From a phage, in the sequence record PZ386957.1: DNA of 64,000 bases; one strand, written 5' to 3'. Both the position numbers and the translations under genes were made by a program. Below the pieces are notes generated by a model that was not told where the DNA came from, ran no database searches, and saw only the letters and a program-made list of their open reading frames with translations. Shown piece after piece: positions 26,854 to 32,605 of this stretch. Positions within the stretch are counted from its first letter, which is position 1. The number at the start of each line of letters is the position of its first letter.

Positions 26854-28086
26854 TTATACTGCCATCGGTGCTGGAATCGCTGGATGGCTTTGATAGTTGA
26901 GTATCTTAAAGTCTTTCGGAGTCTTTGTCAATACCTCATCTAAAGATTTAAATTCCGGTAGTTCAATTGTTGGTTTATCGAACGGAACACGTTTTAATTG
27001 CTCCATTGATTGTTCAAAGTGGTTTTTGTAAATGTGGCAATCGCCTACACTCATAACCAATTCACCAACTTCTAACCCGCAAATCTGGGCGATAATATGC
27101 GTTAACAGTGCATAGCTCGCAATGTTAAAAGACGCGCCTAAAAATAAATCTTGGCTGCGTTGCCACCACATACAAGACAGCTTACCATTATCTACATAGA
27201 ATTGCACCATCGGATGACATACGCCTAATACAGCATTATGTGTTCCTTGTACGTTCCATGAATCCATTACAATGCGACGACTATACGGATCATTCTTGAT
27301 TAAGTCAATCACGTTTTGTAACTGGTCTTCCCAAATCTTCGGGCGATAGACATATTCTTCATCGTCTTTGGTGCTCGATGTGTCTACGTCCATACTAGCA
27401 AAGATCGTGGTATCTGGTGCTAAAATATCCCCACCAAGATAATCACCATCAAGCAGATAACCGAAATAACCATCATCTACCCATTCCTGGAATCCCCACA
27501 AGCAATATGCATCATTAACAAAATTAGATTGAGTCTTCCAGTGGTCTGCTACTAAGAATAGATTATATTCAGAATCAAACTCTTCATAACGCATACCACG
27601 CCAGATAGCACATAAACGGCTTTCTGTTTCATTGGTTGGCGTAAAGTCTTCTACCCACGGGTGCTTAAATGTATGCGTGTATTTGCTTTTAACGCGCTTA
27701 ATTTTGATTTCACCGTATGGGTGAATCGGTTTGCGTCGCCATGCCATACCATACATATTACCAACATTATAACCGTTGAATCGTAGCGGATTCTTTTCTT
27801 TCATATCAAGACAGTTACCGCGCCAAATATCAAAGGCTTCTTCATCGAATTTACCGCGTGTGATTTCCTGCAATCGACGGCGGTCAAGTGATCCTTCCAT
27901 AAACCATAGCAATTCGCCAATTACAGAGGCTGTAGCCATCTTTTTAGTAGTCAGTAATGGGAAACCCTTGCTTAAATCAATTCGCATCTCTGCGCCGAAT
28001 TTAGAGAGCGTACCGACCCCCGTGCGGTCTTCACGAGGCCAGCCATTATCAAGAACATCACGCAACAGTTTCAAATATTCTTTCAT
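26854..28086 (-). CDS. td: thymidylate synthase (ThyA-type) with a large internal insertion; no intron
   Basis: ThyA motifs ...DRTGVGT..., catalytic VCHPMVQFYV, FNIASYALL; 410 aa, about 120 aa longer than typical ThyA. Confidence 0.8.
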   Translation of the reverse strand: MKEYLKLLRDVLDNGWPREDRTGVGTLSKFGAEMRIDLSKGFPLLTTKKMATASVIGELLWFMEGSLDRRRLQEITRGKFDEEAFDIWRGNCLDMKEKNPLRFNGYNVGNMYGMAWRRKPIHPYGEIKIKRVKSKYTHTFKHPWVEDFTPTNETESRLCAIWRGMRYEEFDSEYNLFLVADHWKTQSNFVNDAYCLWGFQEWVDDGYFGYLLDGDYLGGDILAPDTTIFASMDVDTSSTKDDEEYVYRPKIWEDQLQNVIDLIKNDPYSRRIVMDSWNVQGTHNAVLGVCHPMVQFYVDNGKLSCMWWQRSQDLFLGASFNIASYALLTHIIAQICGLEVGELVMSVGDCHIYKNHFEQSMEQLKRVPFDKPTIELPEFKSLDEVLTKTPKDFKILNYQSHPAIPAPMAV

Positions 28087-28345
28087 CCCACTTCACCTTT
28101 TTCTTATTGATTGCTTTCTTACGCAGTTTTGCTACTGTCTCGTCAATGTTGATAAAGACAACACCCGGATCGAATTCTGTAACTGGTCTTTCTATATCAC
28201 TGTTTTCCTGCACCGGAAGCCATGATGCTTTCGCTTCATCATAGAGATATTGTAAACCGTAATAATCTACGGATACTGCGTAGTTTTCACTGGTAGCCGA
28301 CCATAATTGAATAATGCTGATTTTCATTATTGTTCCCGTCCGCAA
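28058..28345 (-). CDS. hypothetical protein
   Basis: 95 aa ORF overlapping the td start. Confidence 0.35.
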   Translation of the reverse strand: MRTGTIMKISIIQLWSATSENYAVSVDYYGLQYLYDEAKASWLPVQENSDIERPVTEFDPGVVFINIDETVAKLRKKAINKKKVKWDERIFETVA

Positions 28346-28420
28346 TGTTTACAACGTCCACCGATAAACAGTAACACTTCACCGCAATGCTTGCACTCAT
28401 AATCTGTCAGAATTTTCATG

Positions 28421-29020
28421 TTACGCCTTCTTACGTTCTAAAATTTGTTCGCTGATCAGGTAATCATCAAGGAAGTAATTATGTTCTTCTTTTGTTGCAA
28501 AGTCAAAATATAATTCATGAATCATTTCCTTAGAGATACCAACATCATATTCAAACGGATCATTAATCCCTGCTCGTTGAACATATGTTAACACAATACG
28601 ATCCGCAAAGTCAACTGCTTTTTCAATCAGGGAAGGTCCACCGATAACACTTACCAAACCTTGCGTTTTCTCTAGGACTTTTAATAAATCCTTCAATTCA
28701 TTATCATTAGTAATCGCGGTATACACATCAGGTTGGTCGCCATTTTTTGTTTTCGGTGCTGGATTGCTTGTATCGGTGCTAACAACCACATTCAAACGTC
28801 CCCAAAGTGCTTTAGGCAGACTTTCAAAGGTATTACGTCCCATTACTACCGCAGCAAAATCAACCTCGCCAATAGTGCGAATTTTAAAGTTTTCCATATC
28901 CTTTTTGATTGGACGACCCCACGGTAAACCGCCTTTAAAACCAAAAGCCCAATTTTCATCCGACATTTTAGTGTCACCAATCGCAAATACACATTGAATC
29001 ATAATATAATCTCCTGTCAA
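28421..29020 (-). CDS. frd: dihydrofolate reductase
   Basis: DHFR-like N-terminus ...FAIGD... and GGPSLIE-type cofactor region; 199 aa (T4 Frd 193 aa); adjacent to td. Confidence 0.75.
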   Translation of the reverse strand: MTGDYIMIQCVFAIGDTKMSDENWAFGFKGGLPWGRPIKKDMENFKIRTIGEVDFAAVVMGRNTFESLPKALWGRLNVVVSTDTSNPAPKTKNGDQPDVYTAITNDNELKDLLKVLEKTQGLVSVIGGPSLIEKAVDFADRIVLTYVQRAGINDPFEYDVGISKEMIHELYFDFATKEEHNYFLDDYLISEQILERKKA

Positions 29021-29346
29021 ATCAGTTTAAAGAAGTTTTCGTTTACATTTTCTTCGTTAATTTCTGTTTTAAACACTGTGCCATCATCAGGGCAGACATA
29101 ATAGCGTTCTGAATAGTCACGATACTTTTTCAGTAGACTGACACCAACATTAACACCATTTTCCCAGAAACGGAAGATAATTTTATCGGCAGTGTAACGA
29201 TAATCACTTTGAATCAGGCTACCATCACCGCGACGAGACTCATAAATCGTAATACAATTGCGGTTGGCTGTATTAAGACATTCCTCGATAGTACCACAAG
29301 ACAGAATTTCGATTGATCCGTTAACTTCTTGTTCTACAGTCCACAT
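29017..29346 (-). CDS. hypothetical protein (start trimmed to internal Met)
   Basis: SD GTGAGGA precedes the internal ATG (MWTVEQ...); the ORF-track N-terminus is leader read-through. Confidence 0.4.
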   Translation of the reverse strand: MWTVEQEVNGSIEILSCGTIEECLNTANRNCITIYESRRGDGSLIQSDYRYTADKIIFRFWENGVNVGVSLLKKYRDYSERYYVCPDDGTVFKTEINEENVNENFFKLI

Positions 29347-29393
29347 AATGTAATCCTCACTTTGTTTCGATGTATGCATTATACAATACTATG

Positions 29394-30830
29394 TTACTTT
29401 GTCAACTCTTTTTCAAAAGATTTTACGATATACATGATGGTGCTCAATTCGGACGGTGCTACTGTCTCTGTGTAGCCATCCGGCATATCTTCTTTTGAGA
29501 TATAGGAAGTTTTACCTTTCATCGCTTCCTTGATTTTGTTCTCTAAGTCTAAGATCTTTTGTCCGTCTTGTAAAGTCAATTCATAAAAGATCTCGTGGTC
29601 GAACTTAGAAACGCGAGATTGTTGTCTCATCCTTTTGACCGCATCTTTATTTGTAATTCCAAATTTAACACCAACAAAAGAATTTTTGTATATTAATTTT
29701 TGTACATATAAACACCCACTTATAACAGTAGAATAACCAGATTTTGCGCAATTTGGACACCTGTGCCCATGAGAGACAAACTTATTATATGTGCTTTGAT
29801 ATAAGTGGTTATTTGGACACATGAATTCGATTTTCGTCTTCATCACCCCAATATATTTTCCACCAACAAACCTCAAAAATTTATGTTCTTTTGCAACAGA
29901 TTTTATTTCATCAACTACTGCTTCTTCTGTTTTTAAAGTCACCCCTTGACAAATCGCACATTTACTTCCTTTGATTAAAGAAGAAAATGACACAATATAA
30001 TCATGACCTTTTTCACATCTCATATTAAGTTTTGTTGTTACACCTTTATATTTTCCGCCAACAAAACCCAAAAAAGTATAAGACCCTTTTTTCTTGATGA
30101 TTTCTTTTATCGCTTCATTTTCGTTTCGACGAATTCCACCATAGCAAAACTCGCAGCGACATTTTTTGATGACGTTGGATACTTTTCTGTTATAGATGTG
30201 ACCTTCTTTACACATTAAAGATACTAATAAATCGGATGTAACCTTATCTTTATTGTTTTCTACACACAATACTGTATCATTCGTCGAAGTTGCCAATCGA
30301 TTTAATAATTCTTTTTCTTGTATTCTTTTTTCCTTACCGATTTTATTGTAGAAGCATTTAGCACATTTACGTCCACTTATATATGAAATATATGACGTTT
30401 CATATATATGTCCTCGGTCACACATAACACGAAGTTTCGTTTTTGTAGATCCTATATATTTTCCACCAACAAATTCAATAAATTTATAGTCGGTTCTTTT
30501 ATCTATGTTATTTCTAGCTTTATGTTCACTAATAGGATTCCTGTTTGAATTCGCGCATCGCAAGCATCTTTTTCCTTGAGATAAAGATGTTATTGTCGTT
30601 TCGTATAAGTGTCCATTTGAGCACGTTAATGAAATTTTAGTTTTACTACCCTTCCAATCATCAATAAACCCGTTAAACGTATAATTGTTATCTTCGCACA
30701 TTTTAATGATCATTTGTTCATATTCTTTCGGTGATTTAGCCAGCCCATGCAGCTTTTTTACTTGTGCGTCTTTATAAAAATAAGTTTTCATCATTTTATC
30801 CTCCGTTGTTTCGATGTGTGTATTATACAT
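29394..30830 (-). CDS. five tandem Cys4 zinc-ribbon repeats plus C-terminal T5orf172/GIY-YIG-like domain protein
   Basis: Five repeats of ~FxGGKYxGxxTK...CxxGHxY...GxxCxxC, then GCLYVQKL...VGVKFGITNKDAVKR...DGYTETV. Confidence 0.5.
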   Translation of the reverse strand: MYNTHIETTEDKMMKTYFYKDAQVKKLHGLAKSPKEYEQMIIKMCEDNNYTFNGFIDDWKGSKTKISLTCSNGHLYETTITSLSQGKRCLRCANSNRNPISEHKARNNIDKRTDYKFIEFVGGKYIGSTKTKLRVMCDRGHIYETSYISYISGRKCAKCFYNKIGKEKRIQEKELLNRLATSTNDTVLCVENNKDKVTSDLLVSLMCKEGHIYNRKVSNVIKKCRCEFCYGGIRRNENEAIKEIIKKKGSYTFLGFVGGKYKGVTTKLNMRCEKGHDYIVSFSSLIKGSKCAICQGVTLKTEEAVVDEIKSVAKEHKFLRFVGGKYIGVMKTKIEFMCPNNHLYQSTYNKFVSHGHRCPNCAKSGYSTVISGCLYVQKLIYKNSFVGVKFGITNKDAVKRMRQQSRVSKFDHEIFYELTLQDGQKILDLENKIKEAMKGKTSYISKEDMPDGYTETVAPSELSTIMYIVKSFEKELTK

Positions 30831-30881
30831 TACCGTATCAGCATGTCAACACTTTTTTATAAATTTTTAGGCAATAAAAAA

Positions 30882-30899
30882 GCCTCCCCGAAGGGAGGC
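30882..30899 (-). terminator. rho-independent terminator downstream of gene 32
   Basis: GCCTCCC-cgaa-GGGAGGC hairpin with adjacent T-run on the - strand. Confidence 0.65.
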
Positions 30900-30910
30900 C
30901 GTAAAATTCA

Positions 30911-31879
30911 TTAAAGATTCAGGAGAGAATCAAGATCATCAAGATCAGAAGCGGAAGAAGTACCGCCACTCAGGTCCAGAGATGCCATCAGATCATCAGC
31001 GGAAGAATCTGACGCCGTGCTAGCTGCGGTAATACCAGAATCGAATGCATTTAAAGCAGCGTCAAAATCATCAAGCTGGCTGTTAATAGCTGCCGCAGCA
31101 CCAGAAGCCGAAGCACCAGCTACCAGACTTACACCTTTAACTTTCTTAAATTTAGCATCCAGTTCCTCAAAAGATTTAAACTGGTCTTTTGCTACGATAA
31201 CATCAATATCTACCATGTTTTCGAACAGATATTTCTGGAATGCTTCATCTTCGATGTTCGGAATCGCTGATTGCTGCATGAAACGTGAATCATCGTAGTT
31301 CAGGAATTTATCTACTTTCTTAGCTTTCAGAAGGAAGTTAGCGCCTTCGAACGGACATACGATGTTTACAGGTTTTTCGCCCAATTCCGTGTTTACGTTG
31401 CTCATTGCCAGAATCTTGTCATAAATTTTCTTACCGAAGCGGAATTTAAATACTTTACCTTCGTTTTCCGGCGCTTTCGGATCTTTCATTACCAGAATGT
31501 TTGCGAAGTAAGAAGATTTACGCTTAACATCTTGATATTCTTTATTGTTGGTGTTGTACAGGTCATTTTCGCTAATGTATTTGCACACAGGGCAAGAATC
31601 AAAATCACCGTGGGTGCTAGGGCAGTTTTCCCAATAATACTTACCATTTACTTTGAAAGAATGGTTTACAAGGTTGATGATCGGTAAACCGTCTTCGGTG
31701 CGTGCTGGAAGAAAACGAATCACCGCTTCACCGTTACCCGCCGCGTCAGTTTTAATCTTCCACTCTTTCGGATCTTCTTTGGAGAAGCCGTTGCTACCTT
31801 TCAGTGCTGCCAGTTGAGCTTGCAGTTTGGAAGAATCTTGACGACGAAAAATGTTCATAATTATACCTCTTTTATACAT
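30911..31879 (-). CDS. 32: single-stranded DNA-binding protein gp32
   Basis: Zn-binding region [27 protein letters not shown]; acidic Ser/Asp-rich C-terminus; 322 aa. Confidence 0.85.
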
Positions 31880-31924
31880 TAACTATTAATTTGCTAGATT
31901 ATTATACAGATTTAAATTTACTTG

Positions 31925-32605
31925 TCAACTATTTGTTTCGGCTTTTAATTGAGATATTTCTTTACACTCTTTAACTACTTTAACAAATAATGCTCTTGCT
32001 TTTGCGGCGTCAATAACAAGTAGTTTCTTGTACGCCTTCATTTTAACACTGTAAGTTTGCCAAATCAAGTCTTTGGCTACCTTGTCGTGTTCGTCGATTA
32101 TATTTAGAAAGCTATCTAACAACATAAACGACTCAAACGATATAATCCGATTTTGCAGTAGTTTAAAAATACCGCTTGTTTCGGTTGCGGGATTATATGT
32201 AATTAGCTCTTTAAGAGTAACCCCGCGTTTCTCTGAGAAGTATACCAGACTTTTAATGTCATCGTCAAATCGTGTTGCAGCATCAGTGATCTTACCGATA
32301 TACTCCATGTAAAATCCGTATGCGTCAACATCAGTGATTTCACCTACCCATGCATCGGTATTAGCTACCAGATTGCTTAGGAATAGGAAGTATAATTCTC
32401 TTAGATTGTACTTATCCGCTAATTTCGCGAAATAATACTTATCTCTGCGTTTATTGAATGCGGCATCAGACAACCGCATCCTCCAATTATATTTTACGCA
32501 ATCATAACGCCCGTTCATATGAGCTTTCATCATGCAATATAACATATACACAGATTTAGCATTAACTCGCATATCTGGATCTGGAGGAAGACGGTTTCTG
32601 ATCAT
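31925..32605 (-). CDS. 59: helicase loader gp59
   Basis: 226 aa with strings recalled from T4 gp59 (KSVY.LY.M...HMNG.YD..KYNW.MR.SDAA..KRRDKY, FISNLVAN.DAW). Confidence 0.75.
   Translation of the reverse strand: MIRNRLPPDPDMRVNAKSVYMLYCMMKAHMNGRYDCVKYNWRMRLSDAAFNKRRDKYYFAKLADKYNLRELYFLFLSNLVANTDAWVGEITDVDAYGFYMEYIGKITDAATRFDDDIKSLVYFSEKRGVTLKELITYNPATETSGIFKLLQNRIISFESFMLLDSFLNIIDEHDKVAKDLIWQTYSVKMKAYKKLLVIDAAKARALFVKVVKECKEISQLKAETNS

Follow-up and report, generated by a model that had tools for sequence, protein, structure and literature searches.

A probable relic of a homing-endonuclease-type insertion inside the thymidylate synthase of a Krischvirus phage

INTRODUCTION

The td gene in phage sequence record PZ386957.1 raises a simple question: What is the large block of additional amino acids that lies within its thymidylate synthase (ThyA), and where did it come from? 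The DNA analyzed is a stretch of 64,000 nucleotides (nt), called the window below, that we assign to an RB49-like Krischvirus (Straboviridae). Homing endonucleases are thought to persist in essential genes only when they are removed as part of an intron or intein, or else to reside between genes. Our findings suggest that the td product is probably an active ThyA that carries, as a compact passenger domain, the domesticated or vestigial relic of an in-frame homing-endonuclease-type insertion.

RESULTS AND DISCUSSION

A complete thymidylate synthase surrounds a large insert

The td gene (26854–28086, minus strand, as are all of its parts) is one continuous open reading frame (ORF) that starts with ATG, encodes 410 amino acids beginning with MKEYLKLL, and ends at a stop codon. 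The Pfam model Thymidylat_synt matches the product at 278.5 bits (cut-off 24.3) in two stretches, the C-terminal of which aligns amino acids 254–410 with profile positions 110–266. The same split is seen with a local hidden Markov model (HMM) derived from insert-less ThyA relatives, which places amino acids 1–119 on HMM positions 1–118 and amino acids 253–410 on positions 133–288. With a score of 277 bits, the product also exceeds the cut-off of 108 bits set for the NCBIfam thymidylate synthase equivalog model, TIGR03284. Solved ThyA chains cover only amino acids 1–88 and 254–410, with residue 254 equivalent to residue 110 of Escherichia coli ThyA.

These split matches bear out a sequence-only reading of this DNA, which had described td as a 410-amino-acid ThyA with a large insertion in its small domain; the site is a variable surface loop. 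The insert comprises 136 residues. E. coli ThyA has 10 residues at this site (A100–I109, in an alignment to its 264-residue sequence), which leaves a net excess of ~126 amino acids, close to the earlier estimate of about 120. Because ThyA sequence is present on both flanks and the frame is unbroken, the insert is internal, being neither a terminal extension nor the product of a frameshifted fusion with a neighboring ORF.

The catalytic motifs are likewise intact, as the same reading had stated. Each of the strings NMYGMAWRR, DLIKNDPYSRR, VCHPMVQFYV, and FNIASYALL is found in the protein. Conserved residues R21, K48, E58, and Y112 fall in the N-terminal core (amino acids 1–117; 27736–28086), which also includes W88, W116, and R117. 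Conserved residues R270, R271, C290, H291, R310, S311, D313, N321, H351, and Y353 fall in the C-terminal core (amino acids 254–410; 26854–27327). Among them are the catalytic Cys-His pair, the Arg residues that contact the phosphate of deoxyuridine monophosphate (dUMP), and the residues that act as general acid or base. Asn321, within FNIASY, is the residue that selects dUMP, equivalent to E. coli N177, and it is Asn in all three Krischvirus alleles. Deoxycytidine monophosphate (dCMP) hydroxymethylases have Asp where this Asn stands in ThyA, and an assignment of td to that group was rejected on the basis of the conserved Asn321.

The gene neighborhood fits the same assignment. The ORF upstream of td is frd (28421–29020, minus strand), which encodes dihydrofolate reductase (DHFR), an enzyme that a true thymidylate synthase has as its metabolic partner; DHFR is needed only where dihydrofolate arises. 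The order frd-td-nrdA-nrdB is syntenic in RB49, and the adjacency of DHFR and td genes is repeated at the loci of two relatives, P0006 and P0029. The td product is 93% identical to P0001 and 92% identical to P0002, the latter a cluster of 271 members that are 410 amino acids long. We infer that td encodes a working thymidylate synthase, which would convert dUMP to deoxythymidine monophosphate in partnership with the neighboring DHFR.

Position and predicted fold of the insert

The inserted domain (amino acids 118–253; 27328–27735) is bounded by YGMAW116-R117 on one side and D254-Q255-L on the other, and we interpret it as a degenerate homing-endonuclease-type module. AlphaFold2 models the full td protein with a predicted local distance difference test score (pLDDT) of 93.4 and a predicted template modeling score (pTM) of 0.91. 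When the insert is modeled alone with its own alignment, the scores are 92.3 and 0.85. An AlphaFold model had been suggested as a check for an independent domain, and these values predict that the insert folds on its own as one.

Secondary structure was assigned with DSSP on the AlphaFold2 model. The insert opens with one or more basic strands (amino acids 119–130, KPIHPYGEIKIK; 27697–27732), and the segment from 118 to 146 has a net charge of +6, making it the sole basic part of the insert. The motif at this end, PxxPHGxxx(I/V)x(R/K), is common to nearly all insert-bearing ThyAs. Next is a helical core (amino acids 153–204; 27475–27630) with predicted helices at 153–169, 181–184, 186–193, and 199–204. 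It contains the remnant of a family motif, Y..W..M..RCY ... V..W..F, which here reads LCAIWRGMRYEEF ... VADHWKTQSNF and retains W162, M165, V179, W183, and F189, with E168, E169, and F170 in place of the R-C-Y triplet. The third part is a degenerate two-strand motif (amino acids 210–231, YLLDGDYLGGDILAPDTTIFAS; 27394–27459) with predicted strands at 210–213 and 228–231, the counterpart of the family's invariant LDKD...YSPETCxF...N. The insert closes with a strand (amino acids 245–253, YVYRPKIWE; 27328–27354) that runs into the ThyA helix beginning at D254-Q255; insert-bearing ThyAs as a group conserve its motif, (Y/V)xRPxIxxDQ. The first and last of these strands may pair, which would form a two-stranded connector to the ThyA core.

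A Foldseek search of the insert model against the PDB gave zero matches, and a sequence search of solved structures was likewise empty. Against viral models, Foldseek retrieved insert-bearing ThyAs, uncharacterized phage proteins, and several named homing endonucleases. The GC content of the insert (41.2%) and of the window (40.1%) gives no signal of recent foreign origin.

The sequence-only reading had placed the extra residues at the site where other ThyA proteins carry inserts. This is correct insofar as the site is a variable loop of the small domain; however, it is distinct from the loop used in Lactobacillus casei. The 50-amino-acid small-domain insert of L. casei ThyA is located upstream of the YGxQWR motif, whereas the td insert is directly downstream of WR, in the next loop, as judged from solved-chain coordinates and the textbook L. 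casei sequence. The 8-residue insert of eukaryotic ThyA occupies the same loop as the td insert.

The insert is probably not removed by splicing. A Pfam search of td at expect values (E) up to 1 returned Thymidylat_synt alone, with no match to Intein_splicing. The insert starts with RKPIHPYG and ends with YRPKIWE followed by DQL, and thus has no starting Cys, Ser, or Thr and no terminal His-Asn plus nucleophile. An intein was rejected on these grounds: there is no HINT domain, splice-junction residues are missing, and the predicted structure is a helical bundle with short strands. A group I intron was rejected as well: Rfam detected no such ribozyme in 20000–32000, and the reading frame is uninterrupted and shows conservation at the protein level. 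The only match that Rfam gave in this interval is a weak one, outside td, to the small RNA STnc100 (30870–30944, minus strand). It is located at the 5′ end of gene 32, scores 23.7 bits where the gathering threshold is 47 (E 0.09), and is probably due to chance. Like td, nrdB (20848–22011) is a continuous ORF, of 387 amino acids, so the earlier statement that both genes lack introns agrees with the ORFs and with Rfam. The insert would therefore be expected to stay in the mature protein.

Inserts at the same site in other thymidylate synthases

In two jumbo phages, UE-S1 (Asteriusvirus; gp517) and phiKp_21 (Alcyoneusvirus; BEH88035), the insert had weak tblastn matches within the gene for a 517-amino-acid ThyA. 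Another weak match was to a coding sequence of Vibrio phage D181 (OZ196140.1, 2141–3574) annotated as "HNH endonuclease." When translated, this gene proves to encode a 477-amino-acid ThyA-family protein in which 196 amino acids are inserted at the same loop. At the YGxxWR motif it has YPVAFR, and therefore its chemistry may differ from that of a standard thymidylate synthase.

A whole-protein search with td yielded about 30 ThyA clusters with lengths of 401–613 amino acids. In an alignment of 33 ThyAs, the inserts all fall in a single place, between WR and DQL. The inserts range from 127 to 284 residues, and they share junction motifs, with PxxPHG...(I/V)xR at the start and (V/Y)xRPxIxIDQ at the end. 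An insert profile was compared with 1.84 billion cluster representatives, of which 16,619 matched at E ≤1e-3 and 4,005 at E ≤1e-10. Among the best 145 new representatives matching this profile, 83 are ThyAs, and 78 of these 83 are split at the same HMM positions (∼120–125 / 130), mostly by 190–305 residues. At least 89 insert-bearing ThyA clusters are present in the sampled set. Ten long module-bearing proteins that are not ThyAs contain no recognizable host enzyme, and ThyA is the only host enzyme seen.

In sampled insert-less relatives, the loop at the insert site is 5–33 residues long. Several of the insert-less proteins P0044, P0055, P0057, P0087, P0098, and P0106 have long loops of 32–33 residues there, which could be scars of lost inserts or mere loop variation. 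A neighbor-joining tree was built from ThyA core columns. In it, most of the proteins with an insert branch as a basal grade, and five others (P0113, P0026, P0029, P0050, and P0037) are scattered among insert-less ThyAs with weak support. This patchy distribution appears to fit repeated gain or loss.

Relationship to free-standing homing-endonuclease-type proteins

The longer ThyA inserts have three parts. The first is a beta-rich N-terminal segment (...Y.V.GK....VV.F..TGS........IKD...P.V.GVGYLG), the second is a core module (LY..W..M..RCY......Y..V.VC.RW..F.NF..D...L.GF.E.VDSGY...LDKDY.G...YSP.TC.F.....N), and the third is a C-terminal segment of ∼60 residues. The Krischvirus insert keeps only a degraded core module, both flanking sub-domains being gone.

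Several lines of evidence tie these inserts to proteins that stand alone. The long inserts have matches in PHROG 2081, 953, and 374, families that share the name "HNH endonuclease," with E values from 4e-32 to 2e-14; region 99–192 of the PHROG 2081 profile is matched at E 1e-20 to 4e-32. BLASTP aligns long inserts directly with free-standing proteins, in one case over 158 residues (43% identity, E 6e-37) and in another over 180 residues (35% identity, E 4e-23), and both alignments span the N-terminal segment and the module. Finally, when a profile of Krischvirus-type short inserts was compared by hhalign with a profile made of free-standing proteins only, the match had a probability of 95% and an E value of 3.6e-8.

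The free-standing proteins, retrieved with a profile of 25 inserts, are 170–450 amino acids long and have no ThyA domain. In them, the module is found beside AP2, I-HmuI NUMOD-like, DUF723, or NUMOD4 plus HNH_3 domains. Because two of these relatives have a separate HNH_3 domain, the ancestral module may have been either a nuclease or a DNA-binding accessory. The module thus belongs to a very large phage protein family of homing-endonuclease type, in which insertion into ThyA is a recurrent derived architecture.

Existing domain models do not capture this family. Pfam searches of the window insert and the long inserts, with E values as high as 10 allowed, identified no family, and NCBIfam searches of the free-standing relatives gave no model for the module. 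A word-indexed homolog search with the insert alone returned zero matches and missed even RB49 Td, apparently a limit of the index, since tblastn and profile searches succeeded. To our knowledge, proteins of the PHROG 2081/953/374 type have not been characterized biochemically. Near td, at 29394–30830 (minus strand), there is a gene for a 478-amino-acid protein with four CapR/treble-clef zinc-ribbon repeats; it corresponds to RB49p240, which is annotated "endonuclease." By visual inspection, repeats of a similar kind stand ahead of a module of the td-insert type in the free-standing protein P0174.

Decay of the module

To follow the state of the module, a signature of 20 near-invariant positions was taken from 15 free-standing proteins (G-Y-W-M-R-C-Y-V-W-F-L-D-K-D-Y-S-E-T-C-N). 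Free-standing proteins keep 17–20 of these positions. Long ThyA inserts keep 13–20 (most of them 16–20; P0113 has all 20), intermediate ThyA inserts keep 9–11, and Krischvirus-type inserts keep only 6–9, with the window insert at 9. The signature residues lost from the window copy are G, Y, R, C, Y, K, Y, S, E, C, and N. For example, the Lys of LDKD is Gly214 in the window and Ser, Asn, or Cys in other Krischviruses. In the window, Leu222-Ala223 stands where the family has Tyr-Ser, Thr227 is found in place of Cys, and Asp takes the position of the last Asn.

Other properties have changed in parallel. The window module has a net charge of −12 and is strongly acidic, whereas the charge is ∼0 in free-standing proteins and long inserts. 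Accessory domains (N-terminal beta, AP2, NUMOD-like, and HNH_3) are a feature of free-standing proteins and, in part, of long ThyA inserts; the 136-amino-acid insert lacks them. The signature losses and the charge shift argue that the Krischvirus copy no longer carries out the DNA task of the ancestral module, and it would be expected neither to bind nor to cut DNA.

Conservation and selection within Krischvirus

Over its full length, td is 88.7%–89.9% identical at the DNA level to 59 phage records; Krischvirus taxonomy was verified for some of these, and the organism names of the remainder are consistent with it. A tblastn search with the insert alone located it in 59 of 59 records at 89.7%–97.8% amino acid identity. 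Because the insert is found in all Krischvirus records of the phage collection, it is taken to be genus-wide, and is not peculiar to this phage. RB49 td is also 1233 nt long and encodes 410 amino acids. The feature has been public since RB49 was sequenced, usually under the plain annotation of thymidylate synthase. The td genes of phages Brandy and Cognac, and the insert-bearing gene of phiKp_21, are annotated "hypothetical protein."

The ratio of nonsynonymous to synonymous polymorphism (pN/pS), pooled over seven Krischvirus td genes, is 0.024 in the N-terminal core (amino acids 1–117), 0.196 in the insert (118–253), and 0.105 in the C-terminal core (measured for 351–410). The insert is under moderate purifying selection, with a constraint ∼8-fold weaker than that of the N-terminal core. 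A 4-residue indel is tolerated among Krischvirus inserts, and former signature positions vary freely.

A more distant relative helps to date the reduced form. The Td protein P0006, which is ∼52%–55% identical overall to that of the window, has a reduced insert of ∼127 residues, and its gene is on a T4-like contig (169 kb) whose genes follow the gp32...frd-td...nrdA-nrdB order of the window. Since P0006 carries the reduced insert, this form is older than the genus Krischvirus.

Origin of the insert

The explanation that best fits these observations, and the one we judge likely, is that an active ThyA has retained the domesticated or vestigial relic of a homing-endonuclease-type insertion. The ancestor would have had an N-terminal beta-rich sub-domain, then the Y..W..M..RCY...LDKD...YSPETC.F...N module, and then a NUMOD-like C-terminal segment. 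Such a gene, presumably arriving as a mobile element, would have entered an ancestral phage td in frame. The enzyme could have kept working without splicing because the loop is tolerant and the ends of the insert meet in an apparent two-stranded connector. In the lineage leading to Krischvirus, both flanking sub-domains would then have been deleted and most signature residues of the module replaced. The end product would be a compact, acidic, aromatic-rich passenger domain at the loop that corresponds to residues 100–109 of E. coli ThyA. At a minimum, its moderate purifying selection may reflect the harm that misfolding or an imprecise deletion would do to an essential enzyme.

Several points weigh against this explanation. 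On its own, the window insert matches PHROG 2081 at only E 0.46, although in the same profile region (99–192) as the long inserts, and its homology depends on profiles and a chain of intermediates. The closest pair of ThyAs that differ in presence and absence of the insert, P0029 and P0098, is only 76% identical in the ThyA core, and therefore recent mobility is not demonstrated. Purifying selection at a ratio of ∼0.2, together with retention across deeply diverged phages, would also fit a newly acquired function. In that alternative the insert is still derived from an endonuclease, and has been reused and functionally selected in Krischvirus for protein contact (for example, within the deoxynucleoside triphosphate-synthesizing complex or with gp32) or for regulation of the enzyme. 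A pN/pS value clearly below neutrality, presence in every Krischvirus record and in a relative as distant as P0006, the confident fold prediction, and a negative charge that is not a feature of the ancestral module all favor such a use, as does the fact that within Krischvirus the DNA of the insert is more conserved than the active-site cassette described below. However, the nonsynonymous rate of the insert is ∼8 times that of the N-terminal core, the indel and the free variation at former signature positions are tolerated, and the constraint could reflect merely the avoidance of misfolding inside an essential enzyme. A new function is unlikely in our estimation, although it is the main alternative.

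Far less credible is the idea that the insert is an ordinary elaboration of a small-domain loop, with no mobile-element ancestry and a spurious similarity to endonucleases. The loop does vary in length among sampled insert-less relatives, and neither Pfam, NCBIfam, solved-structure sequences, nor Foldseek against the PDB offers a family or match for the insert. This idea nevertheless fails to account for the hhalign match to free-standing proteins, the strong BLASTP alignments of long inserts at the identical site, or the continuous series of intermediates with shared junction motifs, and we regard it as very improbable. We assign even less credence to a still-active selfish element, whether an endonuclease functioning within the enzyme or a spliced intein or intron. 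In its favor, the td gene of T4 is well known as a target of mobile introns, a split intein appears to be present in nrdA of the same window, and a recombination cassette lies just 3′ of the insert. Against this, only 9 of the 20 signature positions remain, the Lys, Tyr-Ser, Cys, and Asn of LDKD...YSPETC...N are lost (with the Lys position variable in the genus), no DNA-binding accessory domains are left, and the searches for intein splicing, splice-junction residues, and a group I intron were negative for a frame that is conserved.

The preferred explanation of an in-frame relic also modifies one earlier view of this locus, namely that mobile-element pressure had landed on other genes instead of td. 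As the insert is itself homologous to homing-endonuclease-type proteins, td apparently did not escape: it took an in-frame insertion that has stayed in place.

A divergent cassette in the active-site region

A second feature of td is a divergent segment spanning approximately codons 261–380 (26947–27306). Both the Cys of the active site and the RSxD...N motif lie within it. Compared in 60-nt bins with td of other Krischviruses, the gene has a nucleotide identity of 85%–100% up to codon 260, which falls to 47%–90% for codons 261–360 and is 93%–95% again for codons 381–400. Relative to RB49, synonymous divergence (dS) in the segment is 1.9, which is saturated, and the segment is at most 79.9% identical to any phage in the collection. 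Its alleles form at least three classes (the window/P0001 type, the RB49 type, and the JSE/KFS-EC type). The active-site-coding part of td thus has the appearance of a swapped recombination cassette. Its breakpoint is ∼7 codons past the insert, and its most divergent bin, codons 301–320 (RSxD), is at about the position targeted by T4-type td introns and their endonucleases.

The variability of this region bears on another aspect of Krischvirus biology. We know of no thymidylate-synthase-superfamily gene in Krischvirus other than td. The pathway behind the cytosine modifications of some Krischviruses was recently reported to be unknown, and the genus is reported to have no homologs of 5hmdCMP and 5hodCMP synthases (PMC13390438). 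The cytosines of Krischvirus SAP are fully modified, whereas those of TB34, which is 99.96% identical, are unmodified (PMC13390438). Since td carries the dUMP-type Asn, we do not propose it as the modification enzyme. However, a sole known superfamily gene combined with an unknown modification pathway means that the architecture of td and its variable active-site cassette merit a direct look.

Neighboring mobile elements

The earlier description of an intein and an HNH gene in nrdA, and of an HNH–AP2 gene between nrdA and nrdB, agrees with the ORFs found. The nrdA region (23141–26788, minus strand) is broken into three ORFs on that strand. The ORF at 25181–26788 encodes the N-terminal part of NrdA and the N-terminal half of an intein (CLSGETMV...), whereas the ORF at 23141–24178 encodes the C-terminal half of the intein (...FANDILVHNC) and the C-terminal part of NrdA. 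Between them, in another frame, is a separate HNH endonuclease gene (24171–25145). This arrangement has the features of a split intein, which would need trans-splicing. In RB49, nrdA is a single ORF of 747 amino acids. Between nrdA and nrdB in the window is a gene for a 179-amino-acid endonuclease with HNH_3 and AP2 domains (22011–22550, minus strand), in place of which RB49 has three small hypothetical ORFs.

Comparison with known systems and implications

The td insert can be compared with several established arrangements. Inteins with a nested homing endonuclease, such as the putative nrdA intein of the window, also reside in frame in a conserved enzyme of nucleotide metabolism, at a fixed site and in many lineages, and they too have shortened, degenerate versions beside full-length ones. 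Unlike inteins, the td insert has no HINT or splicing domain and no junction residues, and it is predicted to be a permanent domain of the enzyme. The group I introns of T4 td (I-TevI) and Bacillus thyA (I-BmoI) likewise place a mobile endonuclease gene inside a thymidylate synthase gene. However, they are spliced at the RNA level, are located in the active-site-coding region, and encode GIY-YIG enzymes, whereas the td insert has no ribozyme, occupies the loop after WR, and is translated within the enzyme.

The free-standing PHROG 2081/953/374 proteins contain a homologous module, and long ThyA inserts reproduce the N-terminal domain plus module of two of them, P0122 and P0124. In contrast, the window copy is embedded in an enzyme, has no flanking sub-domains, and retains fewer than half of the signature positions. 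The inserts of L. casei and eukaryotic ThyAs resemble that of td in adding residues to the small domain while leaving catalysis intact, but these are short helical elaborations without homology to mobile elements, whereas that of td is an autonomous domain of 136 residues. In the part of the literature that was covered, on RB49 and Krischvirus td, on ThyA with in-frame, HNH, or endonuclease domains, and in reviews of jumbo phages, we found no mention of the td insert.

The insert is of moderate interest in the window itself and of higher interest for the long-insert family to which it points. Tentatively, the long-insert relatives (for example, those in UE-S1, phiKp_21, and ∼80 metagenomic clusters) could represent an undescribed kind of selfish element: a complete, unspliced, in-frame homing endonuclease that is a permanent domain of ThyA and spreads by cutting insert-less td at the site encoding the loop. 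The ThyA homodimer could possibly pair two nuclease modules, and the Krischvirus insert would be the fossil end-state of a cycle of invasion, decay, and persistence. We consider this scenario a real possibility that falls short of being probable.

The annotation of insert-bearing ThyA genes is inconsistent, some being labeled "hypothetical protein" and others "HNH endonuclease." Insert-bearing ThyAs are also a natural example of a large domain insertion that is tolerated by a drug-target enzyme. Most broadly, these findings describe homing-endonuclease-type sequence that is translated within a conserved enzyme, at one loop, in forms spanning all states between near-intact and fossil. Should the long forms prove active, they would constitute a third way for homing endonucleases to inhabit genes.

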